Source: Deltaproteobacteria bacterium | GTDB taxonomy: Bacteria; Desulfobacterota; Deferrimicrobia; Deferrimicrobiales; Deferrimicrobiaceae | Assembly (NCBI GenBank): GCA_016218975.1 | Contig: JACRCO010000037.1 | Coordinates: forward strand, 203,757 to 267,756 | Direction of reading: 5' to 3' | Length of the DNA stretch: 64,000 nt | Shown here: positions 2,576 to 40,724 of the stretch, piece after piece | Layout of the letters: each line of letters starts with the position of its first letter | Position numbering within the stretch: the stretch's first letter is position 1 | Notes under the pieces: model-generated | Seen by the model: the letters and a program-made list of their open reading frames with translations, nothing else | What the model was told of the DNA's origin: nothing | Databases searched by the model: none | Position numbers and translations under genes: made by a program

Positions 2576-4036
2576 CTACTCCCGGTTCAGTCCGCATTCC
2601 TTTATCTTGTACAGTAATGCCTTATAACTGATATCGAGCAGTTGAGCGGCTTTTCGCCGGTTCCAACGCGTCTGGCTGAGCACCCGCTCGATCAGGTCCC
2701 GCTCCGCGTTGCGCTGTGCGATCTTCGCAACCTCTTTCAGCGTCCCCTGTTCCGGCAGGTATGTATCGTTTCCGTTCCGTGCGGCATGGTTGTTCCCCGC
2801 CGCTGCCCTCGGAGGTTGGGGACGGTGCGACTCTTCGCGCTCATCACTATACGTCGAATAGGAACCGTTCTCCTTTTTGCGCAGGAATTCCGAGATAAGC
2901 TGACTCTCGCTGCCCAGGATGACGAACCGCTTGATGTTGTTCTCAAGCTCCCGCACGTTTCCGGGCCAGGAGTAATTAAGGAACATATCGGTCAAACGGG
3001 GGGAAATATTAACTCTTTCCCGGTTGTACATTTCCGAGTATCGGGTCAGGAAATAGTCCACCAGCAACGGGATGTCGTCCTTCCGGTCGCGCAAGGGAGG
3101 CAGGATTATGTTCACGACATTGATCCGGTAGAAAAGGTCGCGCCGGAAGCGGTTCTCGTCCACCATGCGCTCCAGGTTTTTATTGGTGGCCGTAAGGATC
3201 CGGCAGTTGACCTTGACTTCCCTTTCCCCTCCGATCCTGTAGAACTGCCTTTCCTGCAGGACGTGGAGAAGTTTCGATTGAAGGTCCTGGTGCATCTCGC
3301 TGATTTCGTCCAGGAAGATCGTGCCGTTCTGGGCGATCTCGAAGCGGCCGTACTTTCGCCGGTGGGCGCCGGTGAACGCACCGCGTTCGAACCCGAAAAG
3401 CTCACTTTCCAGCAGCTCCCGCGGCAGGGCCGCGCAGTTCACCTTTATGAAGGGTTCGTTCGCACGCTCGGACGCCTTGTGCAGCGATTTGGCCACCAGC
3501 TCTTTGCCGGTGCCGCTTTCCCCGGTGATAAGGACAGTGATATCGGTGTTCGCCACCTGGTCGACGATCGCCTGCACCTTGCTCATCCTGTCGCTCAAGG
3601 AGAAAAGGAGCTTGTATTCGTCCTCAGACCTTGACTTGGTCTTCAGTTCCTCGAGTTCCCACTTGGCCTGCGATGTTTCGAGGACCATCTGGATCTTGAG
3701 CAGCAGTTCCTCGCCGCGGAAGGGCTTCTTGATGTAGTCGTTCGCACCGTCTTTCATGGCTCGCACGACTTCTTCGACGTCACCCTGGCCGGAGACCATG
3801 ATGATGGGGGTGGCCCCCCCGTTCGAACGGAACGGCTTTATGAGGTCCACTCCGCTCCCGTCCGGAAGGAAAATGTCGAATATCAGGCAGGAGAAGTGGT
3901 GCTTGTCGAGGGTCTCGACCGCTTCCGCCTTGTTGAAGGCGGTAACCACCTCCATGCCGCTCTCCGTGAGCAGATTTTTCGTGAACTGCATGAAAACGGG
4001 ATCGTCGTCGACGACAAGGATTGTAGAAGACGGCAT
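2576..4036 (-). CDS. Sigma-54-dependent response regulator (receiver + AAA+ sigma-54 activator + Fis-type HTH), PrsR-like
   Basis: ILVVDDDPV...DIFLPDGSG receiver; GESGTGKE Walker A and GAFTGA sigma-54 contact motif (FGFERGAFTGA); C-terminal HTH. The ORF track over-extends it: the ATG at 4036 is preceded by GAGGAGG and begins MPSSTILVVDDD. Confidence 0.85.
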   Translation of the reverse strand: MPSSTILVVDDDPVFMQFTKNLLTESGMEVVTAFNKAEAVETLDKHHFSCLIFDIFLPDGSGVDLIKPFRSNGGATPIIMVSGQGDVEEVVRAMKDGANDYIKKPFRGEELLLKIQMVLETSQAKWELEELKTKSRSEDEYKLLFSLSDRMSKVQAIVDQVANTDITVLITGESGTGKELVAKSLHKASERANEPFIKVNCAALPRELLESELFGFERGAFTGAHRRKYGRFEIAQNGTIFLDEISEMHQDLQSKLLHVLQERQFYRIGGEREVKVNCRILTATNKNLERMVDENRFRRDLFYRINVVNIILPPLRDRKDDIPLLVDYFLTRYSEMYNRERVNISPRLTDMFLNYSWPGNVRELENNIKRFVILGSESQLISEFLRKKENGSYSTYSDEREESHRPQPPRAAAGNNHAARNGNDTYLPEQGTLKEVAKIAQRNAERDLIERVLSQTRWNRRKAAQLLDISYKALLYKIKECGLNRE

Positions 4037-4258: not shown

Positions 4259-5398
4259 TTACGCAGGTAGGGAGAAAGAGACCTTGGTTCCTTTGCCCGG
4301 TTCGCTTTCCAGCCAGATCTTCCCTTTCTGAATTTCAAGCAGTTTCTTGCATATATGCAGACCAAGGCCAATCCGTGCATTTGCGTCATTTGCGGACACG
4401 ATCCGTTCCTCGGAAAATATCTTTTCGGCCTGGGCCTTCGGAATACCCTTCCCGGTATCGGCGACCCAGACGGTAGCCGATACGGCGTCCCCCGGCTTTG
4501 CCCCTACAGTGATCTGCCCGTCACGCGGGGTGAACTTGATGGCGTTGTAGAGTAGATTGTCCAGAACTTGCATGACCCGTTCCGGGTCCGCCTTCACGCT
4601 CAAGCCGGGTCCCGCGTTTTCCAGAACAAGCCGGATCTGTTTCTGCTCCGCGAAGGGCTTGTAGAAAGCGATGCAGTCGTTCAGAACCTTGTGAAGCTCG
4701 AACCTTTTGATCTGTAGCTGCAATTCCCCCCTGCGCGCGGCCTCGTAATCCAGGAGGGTGTTTGCCATCGCCCGAAGTTTCCGGACCGAACGGCCGAACT
4801 GCCGAACGAGCTCCGCGCCCTCCATGCTGGCGCAGATGCTGCAACGCGAATCCAGGTCCTGATAATACCCTTCCAGAACGGTCAACGCCGATTTGAAATC
4901 GTGGGCAGCCATGGAAATCATGAAGCCTTTCAGCTCGGCCTGCACCTTCGTCTGCTTGAGGTCCGCCTGGATCTTCGACAGGCGTTCGCCGACGCCTTTC
5001 TCGACCCGTTCGCTTTCGAGGCTTAAATTCAGTTTTTCGACGGAACGGGCGACCGAATGAAGCAGGATGCCTTGGGCTACGGGCTTCCTCAGGAAGTCGT
5101 AAGCCCCCTGTTTAAGCGCCTCTATGACCGATTCCAGCGACGGAGATGTGGACAGGAAGGTGAACGGCAGGTCAGGATACCTGCGAAGCGTGTCCCTCAG
5201 GAATTCGAACCCGCATCCCTTCCCGGCCCTCAATTCGGACAGGATAATGGTTTTCCCCTTGACCTTCCGAAGGTGATCCGCGGCATCGTCGAAATTGGAA
5301 ACCGCGGTGACGTCATATTTCTCGTTTTTGAGAGTCTCCTGCGCCTGGGCGAGGAATTTCGGGTCGTCGTCGACGATGAGGACACGTAGGCATTGCAT
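4259..5398 (-). CDS. Hybrid signal protein: N-terminal receiver domain fused to HisKA + HATPase_c histidine kinase
   Basis: LIVDDDPKF...SELRAGKG receiver; MAAHDFKS (H-box); C-terminal ATPase motifs (DTGKGIPKAQ, GLGLHICKKL). Sits directly upstream of the sigma-54 regulator. Confidence 0.75.
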   Translation of the reverse strand: MQCLRVLIVDDDPKFLAQAQETLKNEKYDVTAVSNFDDAADHLRKVKGKTIILSELRAGKGCGFEFLRDTLRRYPDLPFTFLSTSPSLESVIEALKQGAYDFLRKPVAQGILLHSVARSVEKLNLSLESERVEKGVGERLSKIQADLKQTKVQAELKGFMISMAAHDFKSALTVLEGYYQDLDSRCSICASMEGAELVRQFGRSVRKLRAMANTLLDYEAARRGELQLQIKRFELHKVLNDCIAFYKPFAEQKQIRLVLENAGPGLSVKADPERVMQVLDNLLYNAIKFTPRDGQITVGAKPGDAVSATVWVADTGKGIPKAQAEKIFSEERIVSANDANARIGLGLHICKKLLEIQKGKIWLESEPGKGTKVSFSLPA

Positions 5399-7769: not shown

Positions 7770-8972
7770 TTATCGGCCTTGGACGTCGCAGGCGATGACT
7801 TCTTCTTCCATTATAGTGAGTTTCTCGAACCCCTCATGTGTGACGAGATATGCGTTCTCTATTCCGACCGCGCCTTCGCCGGGGAAGACGAACTTGGGTT
7901 CCATGGCGAACGTCATCCCTGCCGCCAGGACGGTCTTCGATCCTTTGGCGATGAAAGGAATCTCGTCGGTTTCGATCCCGATGCCGTGCCCGATGAACTT
8001 GACGTTGTATCCGGGAGGGCCCATGAATTTCGCAGCGAAGGGACCGCGAGACGCCATTTCCAGTCCGATTTCGTAAAGGTCTCCCGCTACCGCTCCCGGG
8101 CGTATGGCGCTTTCGATGTTCCGCAGGATCTTGACCGTCATGGCGTAGGCTTTGGCGAGCTTCTCCGGCAGCGTGCCGATTACGAAGGTCCGGGCCATGT
8201 CAACCAGGTAGCCGTCCTGCGCCCACATGGTATCGACGATGATCGGCTCGTCGACGCCGAAGGGACGATGTCCCTGCCCTGCGGGGGCGTACGGGCCCAA
8301 TCCTTTTCCGGCGGTCGGGAAATCGGCGTAGGAGGGTATCGCGGCGTCAGGTCCGGAAATCACGCATCCCAGCCCCACTTCCTGGTTCCAGGCGCGCATT
8401 CGGGTGATGGTCGTGTGGCCGGCGGCGATCGCCCTGCCCTGTAGAATTCCCTGCAGCTCCTTTTCGGTCATGCCGGGCCGTATCTCCTGCCGGGCGGAGG
8501 ATATGAGCGCAGAAAGATTTTTTCCGCAGGCGCGCAGCGCATCGATTTCGGACGGCCCCTTGACCGAGCGGATTTCCCTTACGATGGCGGATATGTCCAC
8601 CGCCTTCGCGGCTGGAAACATTGAGGAGTAACGGTTGAAGGTCTGCACCGGCATGACGTCCATCTCGAACCCGAGCGACCGGAAGGCAATGCCCTTTTTC
8701 TCGAAATAGGCGGGGATCTCTCTGGGGCTTGCGATCCTTTCGATGATTTCGACAGGCGATTCGGTCATCGCGCGCTCGTACACCTTTCGTACGAAGTAGA
8801 CCGGATCTCCCTCGGCGCGGACCACCAGGATCCCCTGCTGGATGGAGCCTGCGAAATAAAACAGGTCGGCATTCTGAACCACGACCGCTGCATCGACGCC
8901 TGCCTCGATGAGCCTCGCCCGAAGCGCCGCCAACCGCTTTCCTATCTCCTCTTTCGGCGTCAGCCTGTACAT
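7770..8972 (-). CDS. M24-family metallopeptidase (Xaa-Pro aminopeptidase/creatinase-like, with creatinase N-domain)
   Basis: Creatinase-N-like N-terminus plus the C-terminal pita-bread fold (HGIGIETDE, GMTFAMEP). ORF track over-extended: ATG at 8972 preceded by GGGAGGGG. Confidence 0.8.
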   Translation of the reverse strand: MYRLTPKEEIGKRLAALRARLIEAGVDAAVVVQNADLFYFAGSIQQGILVVRAEGDPVYFVRKVYERAMTESPVEIIERIASPREIPAYFEKKGIAFRSLGFEMDVMPVQTFNRYSSMFPAAKAVDISAIVREIRSVKGPSEIDALRACGKNLSALISSARQEIRPGMTEKELQGILQGRAIAAGHTTITRMRAWNQEVGLGCVISGPDAAIPSYADFPTAGKGLGPYAPAGQGHRPFGVDEPIIVDTMWAQDGYLVDMARTFVIGTLPEKLAKAYAMTVKILRNIESAIRPGAVAGDLYEIGLEMASRGPFAAKFMGPPGYNVKFIGHGIGIETDEIPFIAKGSKTVLAAGMTFAMEPKFVFPGEGAVGIENAYLVTHEGFEKLTIMEEEVIACDVQGR

Positions 8973-8981
8973 ACCCCTCCC

Positions 8982-9036
8982 AAAAACAGGGACGTTCTTA
9001 AAAACTTGAAAACGGGGACGTTCCTTAACTTTTTTC
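8982..9036. repeat. Two direct copies of the ~24-nt GGGACGTTC-core element (aaaaacagggacgttcttaaaaac; gaaaacggggacgttccttaactttttt)
   Basis: Read directly from the sequence. AT-rich flanks in a GC-rich genome. Sits 4 nt upstream of the M24 peptidase Shine-Dalgarno on the coding strand. Confidence 0.8.
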
Positions 9037-9088
9037 CACAATTATACCCGGGACGATCCTCCAAACTCTAACACGGGATGGAATAGAG

Positions 9089-9418
9089 CTAAGCGGACTT
9101 TTTCAGCAGGTCTGCTATGTATTTATTCAGGCTCAAACCCTTGCGGGCAGCAGTCAGTGCAAGCCGGCGGTGCAATTCGGGGCCAATGCGAACATTGAAA
9201 CTGCCTTTTAATGATTTCTCCGGCTCGATCCCTCGTTTGCCACACATCTCCAGATAGTCATCGACCGACTCTTCAAACGCCTTCCTCAGTGAGGCCACAT
9301 CTGTTCCCTCGTAACTTACCAATGCCCGGATGAATTCGATTTTTCCGTAAAAGATCCGGTCCTCATCGTTGTAGCATACGGAACCGTAATATCCGAGATG
9401 GGTCATCATGTTTTTCAT
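9089..9418 (-). CDS. hicB: Type II toxin-antitoxin HicB-family antitoxin
   Basis: YGSVCYNDEDRIFYGKIEFIRALVSYEGTDVASLRKAFEESVDDYLEMC is the HicB N-domain signature; C-terminal RHH-like DNA-binding tail; 4-nt overlap with hicA. Confidence 0.8.
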   Translation of the reverse strand: MKNMMTHLGYYGSVCYNDEDRIFYGKIEFIRALVSYEGTDVASLRKAFEESVDDYLEMCGKRGIEPEKSLKGSFNVRIGPELHRRLALTAARKGLSLNKYIADLLKKSA

Positions 9419-9705
9419 ATCAATCCTTCCCCCTTCAGGAGTTCCTCGACCTGCTCCACTTGATAACGCTTCAAAATCGGGGTTGGATGGGGCCGATGAA
9501 GGTTTATCTGCGGATAATCCGGGTGGGAAAAACGAACGCGTGATCCGCCGGTTTTCCCGATGCCCGCTCTGCTATATCCGAATCCCTCCAGCATTGCTAC
9601 GAGTTCGTTCCATGTGAAATCTTTCGGTCTGGAACGGAACCGTTGAATTAACTTATCGCGTTTTGTCACGTGTCGATCATACCGTACAGGAAAAGCGGAT
9701 TGCAA
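9415..9705 (-). CDS. hicA: Type II toxin-antitoxin HicA-family mRNA interferase toxin
   Basis: KDFTWNELVAMLEGFGY...GGSRVRFSHPDYPQINLHRPHPTPILKRYQVEQVEELL is the HicA/YcfA fold signature. The true start may be the internal GTG (VTKRDKLIQRF...). Confidence 0.75.
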   Translation of the reverse strand: MQSAFPVRYDRHVTKRDKLIQRFRSRPKDFTWNELVAMLEGFGYSRAGIGKTGGSRVRFSHPDYPQINLHRPHPTPILKRYQVEQVEELLKGEGLI

Positions 9706-9745
9706 CTATTATTAGTTACACCCCATCACGGATGAGATACGTGAA

Positions 9746-9772
9746 TATATAAGGAACGTCCCCGTTATTAAG
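9746..9772. repeat. Single copy of the GGGACGTTC-core element (tatataaggaacgtccccgttattaag), upstream of hicA
   Basis: Same core (GGAACGTCCCCGTT) as the copies at 8982-9036 and 11936-12083. Confidence 0.75.
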
Positions 9773-9781
9773 TATTCGTCG

Positions 9782-10558
9782 TTATTTTTTCTCGGACCAG
9801 AGTGTTTCGAGTTCCTGGTAGGACTTGGGGAATTCGGCCTGGTAACGCAGGAAGACGGGGACCGGGTATCGGACGCCGCCTGCGTGCGTCTTCTCAAGCC
9901 CCTCGACAACCTCTTCGCTCATTGCGAACGGAAAGGTGAACGCCATCTCGTCGTCGCCCGTCATGCCGAAGACCCTGTCGCCGAAGCATGGAAGGATGAC
10001 CTGCGGCTCACCGGTTTTTTTCCCTTTGATGACGATATCGGCGCAATCACCTCGGCCGGAAAAGTCGCTCTTGATGCTGCCGCCTTTCTTGTAGAGGCAG
10101 GCGTTGAGCAGCCTAAGCACCTGCGCGGAATTTCCGTAAACCAGTACGGTGTCGGGAATGAAGTTCGCGCGGCCGAGCGGACCGGCTACCACATGGGCAT
10201 ACTCGCCGTAGTCGTATTTCTCCAGTGCATCCTCGAACCTTGCGCCCGCCTCGCGGCAGGCGGCGTACATCCCCTCCGCCAGCGTCCCCGATGAATAGTA
10301 TTCGTTTCGTTCCTCGAAGCCGAACACGGCTTTCGCGATCGGGCAGGAAACGTCCGCACCGGACATCGCAACCGCCCAACCGTAACGGCGTGCGATGGAT
10401 ATCGCCTGGCAGACGGCGACCTTTACTCCAAGATGCTTCGATGGAATCTTAACCTTATCCGGAAGCGGCTCGCCGGGCTTGAAGGACTTTATTCCCACCG
10501 GGAAAGTATGCACGCGCAGATATTTTTCGAGTTGGGCGTTCAGCGTGGCGGCGTCCAT
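9782..10558 (-). CDS. DUF169-domain protein (uncharacterised COG2043 family)
   Basis: Length ~258 aa and motifs GVKVAVCQAISIARRYGW, CP...VFGFEE, VILPCFGDR recalled from the DUF169 family. There is no functional assignment. Confidence 0.55.
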   Translation of the reverse strand: MDAATLNAQLEKYLRVHTFPVGIKSFKPGEPLPDKVKIPSKHLGVKVAVCQAISIARRYGWAVAMSGADVSCPIAKAVFGFEERNEYYSSGTLAEGMYAACREAGARFEDALEKYDYGEYAHVVAGPLGRANFIPDTVLVYGNSAQVLRLLNACLYKKGGSIKSDFSGRGDCADIVIKGKKTGEPQVILPCFGDRVFGMTGDDEMAFTFPFAMSEEVVEGLEKTHAGGVRYPVPVFLRYQAEFPKSYQELETLWSEKK

Positions 10559-10601
10559 CGATCTTCTCCTTTTCGGGGAACATTATCCCGCTTTTTCTCA
10601 G

Positions 10602-11879
10602 TCAATCCCACTTTCGTGCGTCGATGATTTTCTTTTCCCGCTCGGTCATCTCCGATTCCTGCAGAAATACGACCTCGCCCCGCAGGCGCGTCAACTCCCG
10701 CGCGGTCTCGGCGATCCTCTCCCGGAGCGAGTCCGAGGAAGCCGCACCGGCGGCGAGCAGCGCGCGGATCTCCATTTTATCCTCGTGACCTGCCCGGGAA
10801 ACCACGATCTGCGCGGCGGATATTTCCGGAACCTTCCTTTCGAGCTGCATCACCTGTTCGGGATGGACGAACATCCCCTTGATCTTGGTCACCTGGTCCA
10901 CCCTTCCCACGATACGTACGAGGCGGGAGGAGGTTCGGCCGCAACGGCACGTTTCTTCGGTGCGGATGGAAAGGTCTCCGGTGGCGAAACGGACAAGCGG
11001 ATAGATCGTGTTCGGCAGGGTGACGACAACCTCGCCGATCTCGCCGGGCCCGACGGTCTTGCCGGAAGCGGGGTCGAGGAGCTCCATCACGATCTCGTCG
11101 TTGATGTGCATTCCGTTCGCCTCGTGGCACTCGTATGCGAGCGATCCCACATCGGCAGTACCGTATGCCTGTCGGACCCGGATACCGAATTCCTCCCTGA
11201 ACCGTTTGCGGAGCGATTCCGGCAGCATCTCCGCGGCGACCAGCGCGACCTGGAGCATCAATCCGTCCCCGGGCGTCACACCCATCTCCCTGGCCTTCTC
11301 CAGAATGGACATCAGGAACGACGGCGTCCCGACGTACCCGGTGACGGACAGGTCCCTTAAAACCTGCGCCTGCATCTCGGTGTTGCCGACACCGGCCGGG
11401 ATCACGGTGCAACCGATCCGGATCAGCGCTTCGTCGAACATCAAGCCCGCCGGAGAAAAGTGATACATGAACGTGTTCTGGACGATATCGCCCTCGCGGA
11501 AACCTGCGGCCACGAAAGCCTTCTCCCATCGCCAGTGGGTCCCGTCCCTCCCTTCAGGATCGTAGGTCGGGCCCGGCGATACGTAAATGCGGCGCATTTG
11601 ACCCGGCTCCACGGAAGCCAGGCCGCCGAACGGCGGTTCCGCTTTCTGGATGTTTTTCAGGTCCGCTTTCCGGGTCAGGGGGATTTTATTCGAATCGGTG
11701 ACGTCCTTTACGTCCTCCGGCCGTACGCCCGCCTCGTCCATCTTCTTGCGCGTTCCCGGAGCCTTCTCGTAGGCGTATCGCACCGTTTCCCGGAAGATCC
11801 GGTTCTGGTATCCCGCCCGGTCCTTCGGCGACATCTTCTCCTGCTCTTCGTAATAGAACCCGCGCGTCCGGTCGATCAT
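10602..11879 (-). CDS. Phenylacetate-CoA ligase-family (PaaK / coenzyme F390 synthetase-like) adenylate-forming enzyme
   Basis: PaaK-family architecture: N-terminal YYEEQEKMSPKDRAGYQNRIFRETVRYAY, central adenylation motifs (YGTADVGSLAYECHE, VHPEQV), C-terminal ACT-like tail. Confidence 0.8.
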   Translation of the reverse strand: MIDRTRGFYYEEQEKMSPKDRAGYQNRIFRETVRYAYEKAPGTRKKMDEAGVRPEDVKDVTDSNKIPLTRKADLKNIQKAEPPFGGLASVEPGQMRRIYVSPGPTYDPEGRDGTHWRWEKAFVAAGFREGDIVQNTFMYHFSPAGLMFDEALIRIGCTVIPAGVGNTEMQAQVLRDLSVTGYVGTPSFLMSILEKAREMGVTPGDGLMLQVALVAAEMLPESLRKRFREEFGIRVRQAYGTADVGSLAYECHEANGMHINDEIVMELLDPASGKTVGPGEIGEVVVTLPNTIYPLVRFATGDLSIRTEETCRCGRTSSRLVRIVGRVDQVTKIKGMFVHPEQVMQLERKVPEISAAQIVVSRAGHEDKMEIRALLAAGAASSDSLRERIAETARELTRLRGEVVFLQESEMTEREKKIIDARKWD

Positions 11880-11935
11880 TGAAAACTCCTCTCCGGCTTA
11901 AGAGGAACACTATGAATCGGGAAAAAATAAACTTA

Positions 11936-12083
11936 CAAACAGGGACGTTCCTGAACTTTTTCGATCAAGAAATTATAAACTTTACCAAGAAAAAAGTTCA
12001 GGAACGTCCCTGTTTGCAGGTAAATTATCGTTGTTCGAAACTTTTTAAGAACGTCCCTGTTTTTAAGAGTGTCCCTGTTTTTG
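11936..12083. repeat. Cluster of four copies of the GGGACGTTC-core element, including a 25-bp perfect inverted repeat (11937-11961 / 11991-12015, 29-nt spacer)
   Basis: aaacagggacgttcctgaacttttt ... aaaaagttcaggaacgtccctgttt are exact reverse complements. Two further copies follow (ctttttaagaacgtccctgtttttaag; agtgtccctgtttttg) before the livF stop at 12091. Confidence 0.85.
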
Positions 12084-12090
12084 CGCTTAG

Positions 12091-12885
12091 TTACGAGAGC
12101 CAGCGTTTGCGGCGTTTGTAGTGTTTGATGTCGCGGTAGGATTTCCGGGCGCCGACTTCGTTCATGCCGAGGTAGAACTCCTTGACGTCCTCGTTGTTCG
12201 CCAGTTTTTCCGTCTCCCCGTCGAGGACGACCTTTCCGTTCTCCATGATATAGCCGTAGCTCGAAATGGAGAGGGCTACGCGGGCGTTCTGCTCCACGAG
12301 AAGGATCGTCGATTTCTCCTTTTCGTTTATGTCCTTGATTATAGCGAAGATCTCCTTCACAAGGAGAGGCGACAACCCGAGAGACGGCTCGTCAAGAAGC
12401 ATCAGCTTCGGCCGGGCCATGAGCGCCCTCCCGATGGCCAGCATCTGCTGCTCGCCGCCGGACAGGTACCCGGCCAGCCCCTTCCGGCGCTCCTTCAGGC
12501 GTGGAAAATAGGTGTAGACCCGCTCGTAATCCCCTTTGACGTTCTTCCCGTCCTTCCGCGTATACGCTCCGCACCGCAGGTTCTCCTCCACCGTCAGGTC
12601 CTCGAACACCCTGCGGCCTTCCATCACCTGGAAGATCCCCCGCCGGACGATATCCTCCGCGTCGCGCCCGTTTATCTTCTCCCCCTCGAAAAGGATCTCT
12701 CCGTCGGTCACCTCTCCCTCCTCGGACTTGAGGAGGCCGGAGATCGCCTTGAGGGTTGTGCTCTTTCCCGCGCCGTTCGCCCCCAGGAGCGCCACGATCT
12801 GCCCCTGCGGCACGACGAGAGAGAGCCCCTTGAGCACCAGGATAACGTCCGAGTAGATCACCTCTATGTTGTTCACTTTAAGCAT
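12091..12885 (-). CDS. livF: Branched-chain amino acid-type ABC transporter ATP-binding protein (LivF-like)
   Basis: GANGAGKST Walker A, LSGGEQQMLAIGRAL signature, LLDEPSLGL Walker B. Confidence 0.85.
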   Translation of the reverse strand: MLKVNNIEVIYSDVILVLKGLSLVVPQGQIVALLGANGAGKSTTLKAISGLLKSEEGEVTDGEILFEGEKINGRDAEDIVRRGIFQVMEGRRVFEDLTVEENLRCGAYTRKDGKNVKGDYERVYTYFPRLKERRKGLAGYLSGGEQQMLAIGRALMARPKLMLLDEPSLGLSPLLVKEIFAIIKDINEKEKSTILLVEQNARVALSISSYGYIMENGKVVLDGETEKLANNEDVKEFYLGMNEVGARKSYRDIKHYKRRKRWLS

Positions 12886-12957
12886 GCAATCCCGCCCGCC
12901 GTAGGATTTCCGGGAGATCGGGGGGAGGATATCCTCCCCCCTGCGCCCGTTGACGCT

Positions 12958-14130
12958 TTACAGCCCGAGCCACTCCATCTTGCGCGGAAGCTCGATCGTC
13001 TTCTTCAGGACCAACTTTCCTTTCTGGTACTCGTAGATCTTCGCCGACATATTCGGACGATGATCCTTCGGATCGAAGGTGATCCTGGAGGTCAGCCCGC
13101 CCGTGTCGAAATTCTTGATCGACTCGAGAGCCGCCTTTACGCCGGGGCCGTTAAGCTGGCCCTTCTTGTCCGCGATCTTCAGGGCTTCGCAAAGGACCAT
13201 CATGGAGACCCAGCCGCGGACGTAATGGGTGTTCTGGTACTGGTTCTTCGTGATCTCCTTGATGAGCTTCATGCCGGGAACGTTTTCGCCGTAAAGCGCT
13301 GCGGCCTGCAGACCCAGCGCTCCATCGGCCGCGTCGCCCGCCATCTTGAAGAGGTCTTCGTCGTTCCCCCAAAGGTTTACGAAGAACTTCGTCTTGAGGC
13401 CGAGCTTCTTGGCGTCCTTAAGGATGACCGCCGTGGAAGGAGTCGTCCCGCCGATCCATGCGAAGTCGGCGCCCTTGCTCTTGAGCGACAGCATCTGTGA
13501 GTTCGCCTCGATGGCCTTCAGCCCGACTTCCTCGTCGCCCACGATTTCGAACCCGAGTTCCTTGGCGTATTCCTTCCCGCCCTTGATGGGAGCGATGCCG
13601 TAGGGAACGTTCGGGTAGATGAACGCCACCTTGGGTTTACGCTTCTCTTTCCAATTGTCCTTGATGTACTTCAGTCCCGCGCGAAGCTGCGTAGTGTAGT
13701 CGGCGGCGATGAAGAAGTTGTATGGGGCCTTAGACATGTCCATAAGGTGCGCGGAATAGGACGCGGATATGTAGGGGATCTTGTCCTGCGCGACGAAGCC
13801 GGTGAGCGCCTCGGTGTCGCCCGAGCCCCAGCCCTGGACCGCAACGACCTTCTCTTCAACGTATTTCTTGTACTGGTTGATCGCCTTGTTCTTGTCGTAA
13901 GCGTAGTCGAACATCAGCATGTCGATCTTCTTGCCGTTGATCCCGCCCTTGCCGTTGATGTAATTCTTGTAGTCCTGGATCCCCTTGGCGTAAGGGTTGC
14001 CGACCGAAGAGGTCGGGCCGGTCAGGTCTGCGAGGTGCCCCACCTTGATGTCGGCGGCCGTTGCCACGCCTGCGGCGAGGAACAGCGCACATGCCACGAC
14101 GGCGGCGATCCGGATCGTTCCCTTTCTCAT
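12958..14130 (-). CDS. ABC transporter periplasmic substrate-binding protein (LivK / type I PBP family)
   Basis: Signal peptide MRKGTIRIAAVVACALFLAAGVATA then IKVGHLADLTGPTS... ORF-track start trimmed to the ATG at 14130 with a GGAGGGGAGA Shine-Dalgarno. Confidence 0.8.
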   Translation of the reverse strand: MRKGTIRIAAVVACALFLAAGVATAADIKVGHLADLTGPTSSVGNPYAKGIQDYKNYINGKGGINGKKIDMLMFDYAYDKNKAINQYKKYVEEKVVAVQGWGSGDTEALTGFVAQDKIPYISASYSAHLMDMSKAPYNFFIAADYTTQLRAGLKYIKDNWKEKRKPKVAFIYPNVPYGIAPIKGGKEYAKELGFEIVGDEEVGLKAIEANSQMLSLKSKGADFAWIGGTTPSTAVILKDAKKLGLKTKFFVNLWGNDEDLFKMAGDAADGALGLQAAALYGENVPGMKLIKEITKNQYQNTHYVRGWVSMMVLCEALKIADKKGQLNGPGVKAALESIKNFDTGGLTSRITFDPKDHRPNMSAKIYEYQKGKLVLKKTIELPRKMEWLGL

Positions 14131-30849: not shown

Positions 30850-32039
30850 AGCGAGCGATCGCCGCCGCAGCCGCGGTCTGCCTGCTCGGCGCGTCGGGTT
30901 ACTACTTCTATGCCCGCAGCAACGGCAAGGCACCCGAATTCCGTACGGCCAAAGTGGAAAAGGGGGATCTCTTCGATACCGTTTCCGCCACGGGGAACAT
31001 AAATCCCGTGACCACCGTTCAGGTGGGGAGCCAGGTCTCCGGGACCATCCAGCACATCTACGTCGATTTCAATTCGCGCGTGAAGAAGGGGCAGGTGATC
31101 GCGAAGATCGACCCTCAGCTCTTCGAGGCGTCCGTAACGCAGGCGAGGGGGAACGTTACGAGCGCATCCGCCGCGGTGGAGAAGGCGAAGATAGTGACGG
31201 CGGACGCCTTGCGGACCCTGCGCCGCAACAAGGAGCTCATAAAGAACGGCTACGTGGCGCAGGCCGACGTGGATGCAGCACAGACGGCCTACGATTCCGC
31301 GGAGTCGACGCAGAAGGGAGCGGAGGCGCAGCTCGAACAGGCCAGGGGGGCGCTCTCCGTCGCCGAGACGAACCTTCGCTACACGACGATCAAGTCCCCC
31401 GTGGACGGAATCGTCATATCCCGTAACGTGGACGTGGGGCAGACGGTGGCTGCAAGTTTCCAGACCCCCACCCTTTTCACCATCGCGCAGGACCTCACGA
31501 AAATGCAGATCGACACCAATGTGGACGAGTCCGATATCGGCAGGACCGGCCCCGGACAGGAAGCCGCTTTCACCGTGGACGCCTGGCCGGGGAAAACGTT
31601 TTCCGGAAAGGTCATCCAGGTGCGCAACTCGCCGATCGTGACCCAGAACGTCGTGACCTACGACGTCGTCATCCAGGTAGACAACAAGGACCTGGGCCTC
31701 AAGCCCGGGATGACCGCAAACGTGTCGATCCGCATTCGCGACTTCAAGGACGTGGTGAAGATCCCGAACGCCGCCCTGCGGTACCGCCCGGCGGCTGCCG
31801 AGAAGAAAAAGCCGGAAAGCGGAAAGGACAAGGACACCCATGGATCGCACGTCTTCACGATCGGCAAGGACGGAAAACCCGCCGCGGTCCCCGTAAAGAC
31901 GGGCGTAAGCGACGGGACGTTCACCGTCCTTCTCGAGGGCGGCCTGAAGCCGGGAGACGAACTTATCGTGGCCGAGACACGCAAGAACCAGGGGAGCACG
32001 ACCGGTGCGGGTCCGCCCGGCATGGGGGGCTTCCGTTAA
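30846..32039 (+). CDS. Efflux transporter periplasmic adaptor subunit (HlyD/MacA family)
   Basis: N-terminal anchor; biotinyl-lipoyl-like QVGSQVSGTIQHIYVDFNSRVKKGQVIAKID; coiled-coil; beta-barrel domains. Confidence 0.85.
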   Translation: MKRAIAAAAAVCLLGASGYYFYARSNGKAPEFRTAKVEKGDLFDTVSATGNINPVTTVQVGSQVSGTIQHIYVDFNSRVKKGQVIAKIDPQLFEASVTQARGNVTSASAAVEKAKIVTADALRTLRRNKELIKNGYVAQADVDAAQTAYDSAESTQKGAEAQLEQARGALSVAETNLRYTTIKSPVDGIVISRNVDVGQTVAASFQTPTLFTIAQDLTKMQIDTNVDESDIGRTGPGQEAAFTVDAWPGKTFSGKVIQVRNSPIVTQNVVTYDVVIQVDNKDLGLKPGMTANVSIRIRDFKDVVKIPNAALRYRPAAAEKKKPESGKDKDTHGSHVFTIGKDGKPAAVPVKTGVSDGTFTVLLEGGLKPGDELIVAETRKNQGSTTGAGPPGMGGFR

Positions 32040-38579: not shown

Positions 38580-40724
38580 CTATCCCTTTCCTCTCTCCAC
38601 GGAGAATACGTTTTTAAGCTTCTCGACGGACTTGATCAGGGTCGCGAGGTGCTGCGCGTCGTTGACCGAAACTTCGAAGTTGCAGATCGCGCGCTTGTCC
38701 CGCGTCGTCATGACGACCGCCCGCCGTATGTCCACGTCGCTTGCGGTGATCGTGCGCGAAATGTCTGCGAGGAGTCCCGGCTTGTCGGCGCAGACGACCT
38801 TCAATTTGACCGGGTGCGCCGCTTTCGTTCCCGCCTCCCAGGCCACCTCGATCGCCCGCGCCGGATCGTTCTCCAGCGCTTTCGGGCAGTCCTTTGCGTG
38901 GATCGTCACGCCCCTCCCCCGCGTGATGAAACCCACGATCGGATCCCCGGGCACCGGGTGGCAGCAGTTCCCGAGCCGAATGAAAATGTCGTCCATCCCC
39001 TTCACGATGATCGCGCTCGGCTTCCTCGCGGTTACCCTTCTGATCAGGGCGCCGAGCCGGCTGTCCTTCACCTTTTCCTGCAGCTGCTCCGGCGGCACCA
39101 GCCGGCGCAGAAGCGGCATGAGCGACATCTTCCCGTACCCCAACGCTACGCAGTAGTCGTCCGCGGTTTTAAGGCGGCTCTCCTGCAGCGTCTCCTCGAA
39201 TTCCTTCGCCTTGAGCACCTTGTTCAGGGAGAGGGAGTATTTCCGCAGCTCCCGTTCCAGAATCTGGCGCCCGAGGGCGAGGCTGCGCTCCTGCTGCTCC
39301 TGGCGGACGAAGGCGCGGATCTTGTTCAGGGCCCGGTTCGTCCTGGCTATCTTGAGCCAGTCCTTGCTCGGAGTGTGGGCGGGATGGGTGATGATCTCGA
39401 CGACGTCCCCGTTCTTGAGCGCCGTCTTCAAGGGAACCATCTTGCCGTTCACCTTCGCGCCCACGCACTTGTTTCCGACCTCCGTGTGGATCGCGTAGGC
39501 GAAGTCGACCGGTGTCGCTCCCTGCGGCAGTTCCTTGACGTCGCCCCGGGGGGTGAATACGTATACTTCCTCGGGGAAAAGCTCCACCTTCACCGTGTTA
39601 AGGAATTCCCGCGGATCCTTCATGTCCTGCTGCAGCTCGAGGATCTGCCGGAGCCACAGGAACATCTGGTCGCCCTTCCCGACGACGGGCCGCCCCTCCT
39701 TGTATTTCCAGTGCGCCGCCACTCCGTATTCGGCGATGGCGTGCATCTCCTCCGTGCGGATCTGGATTTCCATAAGCTCCGCGTTCGGCCCGAACACCGT
39801 GGTGTGGAGGGACTGGTATAGATTCTGCTTGGGCATCGCTATGTAGTCCTTGAACCGGCCGGGAACGGGCTTCCACAGGCTGTGCACGATCCCGAGCACC
39901 TCGTAGCACTCGCGCACCGACTTCGCGATGATGCGGAACCCGATGAAATCGTAGACGTGGTCGAAGTCTATCCCCTGCCGCGCCATCTTCTGGAACAACC
40001 CTGCGATGTGCTTCGAACGCCCGCTGACCGCCGCCTCGAGACCCGCTTCCACAAGCTTCTTTTCCAGCAGCTCGACGACGCTGTGCACGTGGCTTTCCCG
40101 GTCCCGCTTCCGTTCGTCGGCAAGACGCACGAGCTCGCGGTAATCCTCCGGGTGGAGGATCTCGAAGCATCGGTCCTCCAGCTCCATCTTCACCCGGGAC
40201 ATGCCGAGGCGACTCGCGATGGGATTGTAGATGTCCTGGGTTTCACGGGAGACGGCGACCTGCTTGTCGCGGGAGAGGTGGGCGATCGTCCTCATGTTGT
40301 GGAGGCGGTCCGCCAGCTTGACGAGGACGACCCGCAGGTCCTTCCCCATGGCCAGGATCATTTTACGGAGGGACTCGGCCTTCTGGTCGGCGACGTCGGA
40401 AATCACGACGCGGCTGATCTTCGACACGCCGTCCACCATCGCCGCTATGGTATCGCCGAAGAGATCGCGGATCTCCTCGATCGTCGCCACCGTGTCCTCC
40501 ACGGTGTCGTGGAGCAGGCCGACGGCCACCGTCTCCTCGTCGAGGTTCCAGTCCGCGAGGATGTGCGCAACGTTCAGGGGATGGATGAGATAGGGCTCGC
40601 CCGACTGCCGGAGCTGCCCGTGATGCACCTTCGCCGTGAAGACGTAGGCCTTGTGGATCAGTTCGATGTCGCCGTTCGGCCGTGACGCCTGGACCCGTTC
40701 GACGATGTCATGTAGTCGGAGCAT
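38580..40724 (-). CDS. Bifunctional (p)ppGpp synthetase/hydrolase RelA/SpoT
   Basis: HD hydrolase (HPLNVAHILADWNLD...HDTVEDT), synthetase, TGS and ACT domains. Conserved rpoZ-spoT arrangement. ORF-track N-extension trimmed to the ATG at 40724 (MLRLHDIVERV). Confidence 0.9.
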   Translation of the reverse strand: MLRLHDIVERVQASRPNGDIELIHKAYVFTAKVHHGQLRQSGEPYLIHPLNVAHILADWNLDEETVAVGLLHDTVEDTVATIEEIRDLFGDTIAAMVDGVSKISRVVISDVADQKAESLRKMILAMGKDLRVVLVKLADRLHNMRTIAHLSRDKQVAVSRETQDIYNPIASRLGMSRVKMELEDRCFEILHPEDYRELVRLADERKRDRESHVHSVVELLEKKLVEAGLEAAVSGRSKHIAGLFQKMARQGIDFDHVYDFIGFRIIAKSVRECYEVLGIVHSLWKPVPGRFKDYIAMPKQNLYQSLHTTVFGPNAELMEIQIRTEEMHAIAEYGVAAHWKYKEGRPVVGKGDQMFLWLRQILELQQDMKDPREFLNTVKVELFPEEVYVFTPRGDVKELPQGATPVDFAYAIHTEVGNKCVGAKVNGKMVPLKTALKNGDVVEIITHPAHTPSKDWLKIARTNRALNKIRAFVRQEQQERSLALGRQILERELRKYSLSLNKVLKAKEFEETLQESRLKTADDYCVALGYGKMSLMPLLRRLVPPEQLQEKVKDSRLGALIRRVTARKPSAIIVKGMDDIFIRLGNCCHPVPGDPIVGFITRGRGVTIHAKDCPKALENDPARAIEVAWEAGTKAAHPVKLKVVCADKPGLLADISRTITASDVDIRRAVVMTTRDKRAICNFEVSVNDAQHLATLIKSVEKLKNVFSVERGKG

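Follow-up and report, generated by a model that had tools for sequence, protein, structure and literature searches.

What are the short repeats that recur in the gaps between the genes of a conserved operon, at positions 8979-12087 of the 64-kb stretch of Deltaproteobacteria bacterium DNA analysed here (the whole stretch is called the window below)? A preliminary description, made from the letters of the window, had offered three answers: operator sites of a local regulon, mobile repeats like the REP (repetitive extragenic palindromic) sequences, BIMEs (bacterial interspersed mosaic elements) or MITEs (miniature inverted-repeat transposable elements) marking an inserted cassette, or a structured RNA leader. 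The second comes closest of the three and is essentially right, although the inserted cassette turns out to be hicAB alone and not hicAB-DUF169-ligase, and the repeats are neither simply cassette borders nor classical palindromic REPs. We conclude that the units are very probably lineage-wide, non-autonomous repeats of a REP-RAYT system (RAYT, REP-associated tyrosine transposase) of the TIRYT/TIRtron type, in which terminal inverted repeats (TIRs) flank the transposase gene. This reading builds on direct observations of the repeat family, its arrangement and dispersal, its gain and loss, the conservation of its units, their association with a transposase gene and the co-variation of unit variants.

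The repeat family and its dispersal

The window was searched with the 13-mer AACAGGGACGTTC, allowing up to two mismatches, and a second time with the 9-mer GGGACGTTC. The 13-mer has seven sites in the 64 kb, all within 8985-12079, where about 1.5 are expected by chance; a count of seven was reached in 1 of 100 shuffles. The 9-mer is found seven times as well (1.27 expected), six of these being unit sites and the other a stray at 31914, within a coding sequence. With a profile of 97 units, the significant matches in the window are confined to 8979-12087; a marginal one at 39403 falls inside an open reading frame (ORF) of 776 amino acids. Both the seven copies in 8982-12083 reported in the preliminary description and its remark that the motif is not seen elsewhere in the 64 kb are borne out, and we add an eighth, degenerate copy (ACCCGGGACGATCC, 9046-9059, on the + strand like units 1 and 2), read from the sequence and lying under the search thresholds. 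Oriented and aligned, the window copies give a consensus of about 30 nt, aCTTrmAAACrGGGACGTTCyTrAAmTTTTT. The unit is asymmetric, about 29-30 nt long, with an outer end (C)TCAAAAAC-AGGGACGTTC and an inner end YTNAAAAC(TC). Its conserved sequence is likewise asymmetric and has no GTAG tag, and CGTC lies inside the core with no stem after it; the only self-pairing in the window variant is a 5-bp stem with a 4-nt loop (CAGGGACGTTCCTG), which is lost in the variant of the genome WY5.bin129 (CAGGGACGTTCTTA).

The units occupy three gaps of the operon. Next to the M24 peptidase gene, unit 1 (8979-9008, + strand; core AACAGGGACGTTC at 8985-8997; nhmmer E 5e-10) abuts the Shine-Dalgarno sequence, and unit 2 (9005-9035, +; core AACGGGGACGTTC at 9011-9023, with one mismatch) is a direct repeat of it, the two starts lying 26 nt apart. 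Unit 3 (9742-9776, -; core at 9754-9766, one mismatch) lies between the DUF169 stop codon and hicA. The gap between livF and a PaaK-like ligase gene holds a REPIN-like inverted doublet (REPIN, a hairpin-forming pair of REPs), of which unit 4 (11926-11961, +) is the left arm and unit 5 (11991-12026, -) the right arm, separated by an AT-rich spacer of 29 nt (11962-11990). The 36-nt arms are 89% complementary and share a perfect core of 26 nt; the inverted repeat with a 29-nt spacer noted earlier is real. Unit 6 (12037-12070, -; core at 12049-12061) and the degenerate unit 7 (12060-12087, -; core AACAGGGACACTC at 12067-12079) follow, the latter ending 4 nt from the livF stop codon. These last two (window 12042-12077) overlap in an 18-nt tandem register, in which the AAAAAC closing one unit opens the next. 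The same fusion, TTAAAAACAGG joined to TTAAAAACAGGG, is seen again in L004, L037 and L047 (L numbers denote the loci fetched for comparison), and its recurrence suggests that a unit's two AAAAAC blocks undergo slippage or recombination. Window 8402-9834 is matched at 100% identity by L074, a contig assembled independently in Logan, which shows that the repeats at 8979-9776 did not arise as an assembly artefact.

To follow the family beyond the window, one genome per GTDB species was scanned with the 19-mer AAACAGGGACGTTCYTRAA. This gave 62 loci, of which 33 come from one metagenome-assembled genome (MAG), Deltaproteobacteria bacterium WY5.bin129, and nine from a second, CAYILU01; others are single loci in further MAGs labelled Deltaproteobacteria or Syntrophaceae, and the remainder corresponds to the handful of chance matches expected. 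A scan of metagenomes added 98 further stretches with the unit. The WY5.bin129 unit reads cTCAAAAACAGGGACGTTCTTAAAAACTC, and the 226 kb of loci fetched from this genome hold 71 units in 43 clusters, all in intergenic gaps among the gaps checked. For the genome of the window we count 8 copies in the 64 kb and 4 in L173, a locus that probably belongs to the same genome. The genes beside units include etfB, those for dTDP-glucose dehydratase (rmlB), rmlC, cardiolipin synthase (cls), UDP-glucose dehydrogenase and an ammonium transporter (amt), and tRNAs. Single units lie between truly convergent genes in L030 and L052; two other candidate convergent-gene gaps, L033 and L056, proved wrong on inspection (gene calls based on GC3, the GC content of third codon positions). 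By the names of close homologues and one paper, the unit-bearing relatives belong to MBNT15 / Candidatus Deferrimicrobium (GTDB Desulfobacterota_E). The MBNT15 genome paper makes no mention of such repeats, and a literature search with the core sequence returned unrelated primers only. Many contigs stop inside an element: the repeats break short-read assemblies of MBNT15 genomes, and they are possible lineage markers. Two further kinds of hairpin were seen beside single units. A second short repeat, cggaggcgcagcgccttcc, lies in GC-rich hairpins in WY5.bin129 (L031 ~3030-3090 and L043 ~4600-4650), and several units (L027, L029, L030) have an unrelated, GC-rich, terminator-like hairpin on their inner side.

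Units occur singly, in direct runs and, most typically, as composites in which a variable spacer separates 1-3 direct units from the 1-3 inverted ones that come after it. In every case the AAAAACAGGG end points outward. When adjacent units on opposite strands less than 250 nt apart are counted as pairs, the genome loci give 22 convergent and 0 divergent pairs and the independent metagenome loci 17 and 0, a total of 39 to 0. The inner cores lie 33-105 nt apart, with spacers of 13-85 nt that are mostly unrelated, and one spacer family of about 50 nt was found at 3-4 loci. In 17 of 20 elements (from a table read by eye) both arms have the same outer-end variant, be it TCAAA, ACAAA or TTAAA, and one outer pair carries a compensatory change, CTGGGA/TCCCAG. 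Short partial units (CTCAAAAACAGG) accumulate on the outer flanks.

A Y1/HUH transposase gene flanked by units

A partner gene first came into view in the metagenome loci. A regular-expression search for the HUH (histidine-hydrophobic-histidine) and tyrosine motifs had no match in the 62 genome loci or the window, and an all-versus-all BLASTP of about 300 neighbouring ORFs revealed no multi-copy transposase and many occupied sites that are orthologous. In the metagenome locus L146, an ORF of 324 amino acids (122-1096, - strand) lies between a unit at 109 (+) and units at 1134 and 1172 (both -), with its stop codon inside a unit. The product matches Pfam Y1_Tnp with 29.4 bits (gathering threshold 23) and the NCBIfam model 'REP-associated tyrosine transposase' with 68.7 bits, under the model cutoff of 80, and it has both the HUH motif (HFHFLV) and the tyrosine motif (YIHLNP). 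Homologues found with tblastn adjoin units in L138, L147 and L092.

As an independent test of the link between gene and unit, we retrieved three loci with protein homology as the sole criterion. In each of them the gene has a unit upstream and another downstream: 1385 (+) and 2387 (-) in L173, 2018 (+) and 3036 (-) in L174, and 9883 (+) and 10895 (-) in L175. Convergent units thus stand on both sides of the transposase gene in L146, L138, L147, L173, L174 and L175; in L092, the seventh transposase locus, the upstream unit is present and the contig end cuts the other side. The downstream unit starts at, right after or inside the transposase stop codon in L146, L173, L174 and L175. The locus itself is syntenic, with an NAD-epimerase gene upstream and TrmI-TtuA-ThiS downstream in L173, L174, L175, L146 and L092.

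An alignment of the homologues has Y1_Tnp in 22/22 and Bac_DnaA_C in 6/22. The transposase profile finds DnaA domain IV (E 0.005) and the E. coli TnpA-REP structure 4ER8 (E 0.011), while a single-sequence phmmer search against the PDB gave nothing useful. We also modelled the L173 protein (P0244, MBI5575233.1) with AlphaFold2, at a mean pLDDT (predicted local distance difference test) of 80.7. The best PDB match of the model is 4ER8_A, 'REP associated tyrosine transposase bound to a REP hairpin' (E 9e-5, template-modelling score 0.64 on the target), followed by the IS608, IS200 and ISDra2 TnpA structures; its C-terminal domain fits the DnaA DNA-binding domain 3PVP_B with a root-mean-square deviation of 1.1 Å over 64 columns. 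As modelled, the partner is a protein of about 300 amino acids with a Y1/HUH nuclease domain and a helix-turn-helix (HTH) tail like DnaA domain IV. Its subfamily is very large (more than 7500 matches), and the name used at JGI is 'REP element-mobilizing transposase RayT'.

Gene and repeats also agree in their variants. The units flanking the L173 gene are of the same variant as window unit 6, AACAGGGACGTTCTTAAAAAGTT being identical from the core inward, and in the genome of L175 the variant AACCGGGACGTTG stands at the transposase gene and in 8 other gaps. L147 1750-2770 (contig PDVJ01001331.1, GC 0.48) encodes a 30%-identical homologue between 21-nt inverted arms, GGGACGTTCCTGAAATTATGA; from this contig, of much lower GC, the same core may be in use outside MBNT15.

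Based on these observations, we propose that the units function as convergent doublets or in small arrays, which would fold to a long hairpin on single-stranded DNA or RNA, and that their partner would be a single-copy gene at the conserved epimerase-RAYT-TrmI locus, itself flanked by convergent units. Judging from E. coli TnpA-REP and IS200/IS608, the transposase presumably binds and cleaves the units; it might plausibly recognise them, helped by the HTH domain, once a doublet has folded into a stem in the single-stranded DNA of the replication fork. Cleaving and rejoining units without a target-site duplication, it would so spread or maintain the repeats, and the conserved operon of the window would carry its units as passengers in three of its gaps.

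The host operon and its orthologous gaps

What the livF-ligase gap contains differs among relatives. The window has one + unit, the spacer and three - units, the orthologue in WY5.bin129 (L010, 79% identity) has two + units, a spacer and three -, L063 has one + unit, a spacer and two -, and L065/66 has two + units, a spacer and one -, with the variant core ATCAGGGACGTAG on both arms. The gap is empty of units in L064, L067 and L068. Elements have thus been gained, lost and remodelled at orthologous gaps, and relatives that do without the livF-ligase element show it to be dispensable. L010, L063 and L065 do not share the spacer sequence of the window (11962-11990) in their orthologous elements. 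Where an element is kept, the units change least: between L011 and L051, unit cores are identical at 48/48 positions, the spacer at 48/63 and the neighbouring gene at 534/600, and units are better conserved than their surroundings in L019/L049 and L026/L042 as well. One relative, L064, has no GGGACGTTC units and has instead a GC-rich repeat of about 90 nt (…ccggcggagyc gccgcaggagggggg cgaagtgaggtaaagcgcagccgtgcagg…) in two gaps of the same operon (7812-8011 and 8773-9037); it seems that repeats in general tend to land in these gaps.

The genes of the segment, assigned with Pfam and all on the - strand, are those for an M24 peptidase (7770-8972), HicB (9089-9418; MBI5575815.1), HicA (9415-9669), DUF169 (9782-10558), the PaaK-like AMP-ligase (10602-11879), for which a protein look-up returned no record, and a LivF-type ABC ATPase (12091-12885). 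Contrary to the preliminary description, in which the repeats fill every intergenic gap of the segment, the DUF169-ligase gap (10559-10601) has no copy. Relatives were compared in contigs fetched through close DUF169 homologues (L063-L067) and through HicB homologues (L068-L073), and the conserved gene order is livF, ligase, DUF169, M24, isochorismatase, FG-GAP and response-regulator kinase. DUF169 and M24 are separated by just 0-15 nt in L063, L065/66 and L067, which identifies hicAB with its flanks (8973-9781), and not the ligase and DUF169 genes, as the insertion. livF-ligase-DUF169-M24 is therefore a conserved operon that has received hicAB and, separately, unit arrays. The preliminary description had regarded the 3-kb segment as accessory and proposed a synteny comparison for a repeat-flanked hicAB-DUF169-ligase insertion; across L063-L068, the only one of these to be inserted is hicAB.

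The closest comparison is with L068 (80-87% nucleotide identity to the window), which has hicAB at the same site and a unit between DUF169 and hicA at the site of window unit 3. Its hicB and M24 genes are only 7 nt apart, and window 8982-9088 (~107 nt, with units 1 and 2 and the degenerate unit on the same strand) is a clean insertion relative to this junction, with no target-site duplication of more than 1 nt in the window-L068 alignment. In L068 only one flank of hicAB bears a unit, so the repeats do not just mark the edges of a hicAB cassette. The idea of hicAB as cargo between TIRs is weakened by this arrangement and by the more distant hicAB homologues (L069-71), which lie at other loci and have no adjoining units. 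The GC3 of hicAB is low, 0.59, and window 9001-10000, which coincides with hicAB, has a GC content of 0.50 against ~0.60 around it; this drop in composition is consistent with horizontal acquisition of the cassette.

The hicAB genes have a conserved element of their own. A near-palindrome, TTGCAACTATTATTAGTTAC (TTGCAACTnnTnnTAGTTGCAA), at window 9700-9719 overlaps the -35-like hexamer TTGCAA of hicA and is distinct from the repeat unit. It is found upstream of every hicAB copy examined, including L068 (~4700-4725), L069 (~840-870) and L072 (~140-170), and is likely, as a candidate, the operator through which HicB regulates its own genes. HicB was also considered as the binder of the repeat units and rejected, as what the hicAB promoters have in common is this different palindrome.

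Further along the operon, the genes past FG-GAP are replaced by toxin-antitoxin islands (PIN, Phd/YefM, RES-Xre, FitA-like) in L063 (7014-11617) and L068 (8655-10330), and the window and L064-L067 have a response-regulator histidine kinase there instead. L072 (1-950, from Ca. Deferrimicrobium sp. JBFOMV01) has hicAB and small toxin-antitoxin-like cassettes split by a longer direct repeat (catggatcgctcgaccccgcccttcccc…gtgcact…), which carries same-strand units; the arrangement is like that of a cassette array.

Competing explanations and known systems

Several points weigh against reading the units as repeats of a TIRYT-type system. The mobility of the units is inferred from their presence and absence between species. 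The unit is no palindrome and has no GTAG tag, and its recognition may differ from that by TnpA-REP. Most spacers are unique, with a single family recurring at 3-4 loci, which argues against a simple copy-and-paste of whole doublets. Units that are perfectly conserved at orthologous sites fit selection at the level of the host, or gene conversion, just as well. From the window's own genome, units were seen in the 64 kb, in three gaps. Finally, we place the L173 transposase (MBI5575233.1) and the window HicB in the same MAG because L173 and L074 both come from run SRR12113407 and the accession numbers of the two proteins are close; this is probable and not proven.

The strongest alternative is that the units serve the host, as terminators, barriers to RNase III or exonucleases, mRNA-stabilising hairpins or sites for nucleoid proteins, and that their link to the transposase is historical. 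Unit cores at orthologous sites are 100% conserved while the spacers have diverged to ~76%, the livF-ligase element is kept in 4/7 related operons, and the doublet is a strong predicted hairpin between A and T runs; roles of this kind are described for classical REPs. RNA folding of the livF-ligase gap transcript predicts a stem of ~29 bp (-69.7 kcal/mol, z -6.0), which could have a bearing on termination, stability or processing by RNase III. Yet the orthologous operons in L064, L067 and L068 work without the element, and single units, which cannot form the hairpin, are equally conserved. The species-specific variants, moreover, match the copies flanking the transposase gene, which points to a continuing interaction with the protein. 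We thus consider a purely host-serving origin of the pattern unlikely, while noting that service to the host is compatible with a transposase-borne family and does not exclude it.

A much smaller chance is left to a family of MITEs mobilised by a DDE-type insertion sequence, or to promoter cassettes inverted by a site-specific recombinase. Terminal inverted repeats with strict outer/inner polarity and several subrepeats per end that resemble binding sites would suit such elements, as would the AT-rich spacers, some of which contain TATAAT. Against this stand the ~107-nt insertion, clean and with no target-site duplication beyond 1 nt, and the spacers, which show no relation to one another, measure 13-85 nt and lie in elements that also follow genes and tRNAs. 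Neither a DDE transposase nor a recombinase turned up beside units, nor a multi-copy ORF among the ~300 neighbouring ones; the gene that units flank time after time encodes a Y1/HUH transposase. An inverton was rejected on the sole duplicate locus too, L004/L047, in which the spacer has the same orientation.

Operator sites of a transcription factor that would co-regulate M24-isochorismatase-FG-GAP, hicAB and the PaaK-like ligase are largely refuted, and we give this explanation hardly any credence. It was suggested by the imperfect dyad GGRACGTYCC in the core and by copies upstream of three transcription units, with TATAAT-like hexamers close by. The conserved part of the unit is asymmetric, however, and identical units accompany dozens of unrelated genes, follow tRNAs and lie in the convergent-gene gaps of L030 and L052; the preliminary description had itself held that abundant genome-wide copies would speak against a local regulon, and the related genomes have them. 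The orthologous operons of L064, L067 and L068 lack units upstream of the ligase gene, hicAB has its own palindromic candidate operator, and a scan for sigma-70 promoters and terminators gave no enrichment over shuffles. The motif is not a regulon signature for ligase, DUF169, M24 and hicAB and should therefore not be used to infer their co-regulation. A structured RNA leader or riboswitch-like element, suggested by the strong predicted hairpin in the ligase 5' region, is the least credible of all, since a permissive Rfam scan of 8000-13000 gave only generic, sub-threshold matches to miRNA precursors that are caused by the perfect hairpin, the units lie in both orientations relative to transcription, and neither the sequence nor the length of the loop or spacer is conserved among orthologues. 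Integron attC sites, dif/Xer sites, sigma-54 and ECF promoters, LexA boxes, parS sites and uptake sequences were also rejected, their consensus or architecture not fitting the unit.

With a TIRYT-type family as the preferred reading, the locus offers a clean natural case of a Y1 transposase with abundant cognate repeats, for which the exact units, their lineage variants and a matched protein (MBI5575233.1) are in hand, so that the recognition target of the 'domesticated' transposases of subclass 2.1 can be tested in vitro. We rate its interest as moderate to low for general biology and higher for the field of domesticated Y1 transposases, on account of this matched pair of protein and repeat.

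Among known repeats, classical REPs are likewise short (20-40 nt), extragenic and high in copy number, as the units are in the WY5.bin129 loci, but our unit falls outside their definition because it has neither a self-palindrome nor the architecture of a GTAG or CGTC tag. The CGTC-tagged REPs (Di Nocera et al. 2013) share with it the CGTC, which here lies inside the core (GAACGTCCC); they are described as an unpaired CGTC with a stem of 8-9 bp and a loop of 4-5 nt and no associated transposase, and neither applies here. E. coli BIMEs are similar in being composite clusters in the intergenic gaps of operons with a variable number of units, and differ in that their units alternate, whereas ours form a direct run followed by an inverted run and are never divergent. 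The resemblance to the REPIN-RAYT system (Bertels and Rainey 2011; TnpA-REP, 4ER8) is closer. Both have extragenic inverted doublets that form hairpins, a syntenic Y1 transposase gene flanked by repeats and long persistence at orthologous sites, and 4ER8 is the best structural match of our transposase model. In contrast to REPINs, the unit here is no palindrome and has no GTAG, the spacer varies widely in length and sequence and belongs to no fixed replicating unit, and the protein has an additional HTH domain.

The best match is to the TIRtrons or TIRYTs, RAYT-like genes flanked by terminal inverted repeats and not by GTAG REPs (Di Nocera et al. 2013, PMC3733652). Some of their TIRs make up 'moderately abundant' families arranged in dimers or clusters, and the motif GGGGWSAS is common to many (PMC3733652). 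In the classification of Quentin et al. (2018, PMC6006769), subclass 2.1 is defined by a C-terminal Bac_DnaA_C/HTH domain and takes in 20/26 TIRYTs, and no REP-like sequences were found near subclass 2.1 genes. The system described here may be, though we put this forward tentatively and with more doubt than conviction, the first well-populated, lineage-wide REPIN-like population for these DnaA-HTH transposases, in which an asymmetric 29-nt unit would be what replicates or is selected. The HTH domain would read this unit partly in double-stranded form, the unit would be active only when placed in strictly convergent doublets or arrays, and purifying selection would keep it at orthologous operon gaps through hairpins co-opted for the processing or termination of operon mRNA. 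What sets it apart from the published TIRYTs is its host lineage (the uncultured group MBNT15 / Ca. Deferrimicrobium), a high copy number in at least one genome, multi-unit arrays in each arm and a lineage-wide family with co-varying variants. The TIRYT motif GGGG[AT][CG]A[CG] agrees with the core NGGGACGT ((A/C/G)GGGACGT) at 6/8 positions, the last two being GT and not A[CG], and degenerate copies come nearer to it (GGGACAC at window 12067-12079; GGGGACAC in L017). The likenesses are a Y1/HUH RAYT-like protein that exceeds classical RAYTs in length and carries a Bac_DnaA_C/HTH domain at its C-terminus, non-palindromic terminal inverted repeats that flank the gene, one of them overlapping its end, and dispersed copies of these repeats as singles, dimers and clusters; save for the match to the motif, the abundance and the lineage-wide spread, the system thus fits the TIRYT description feature by feature.

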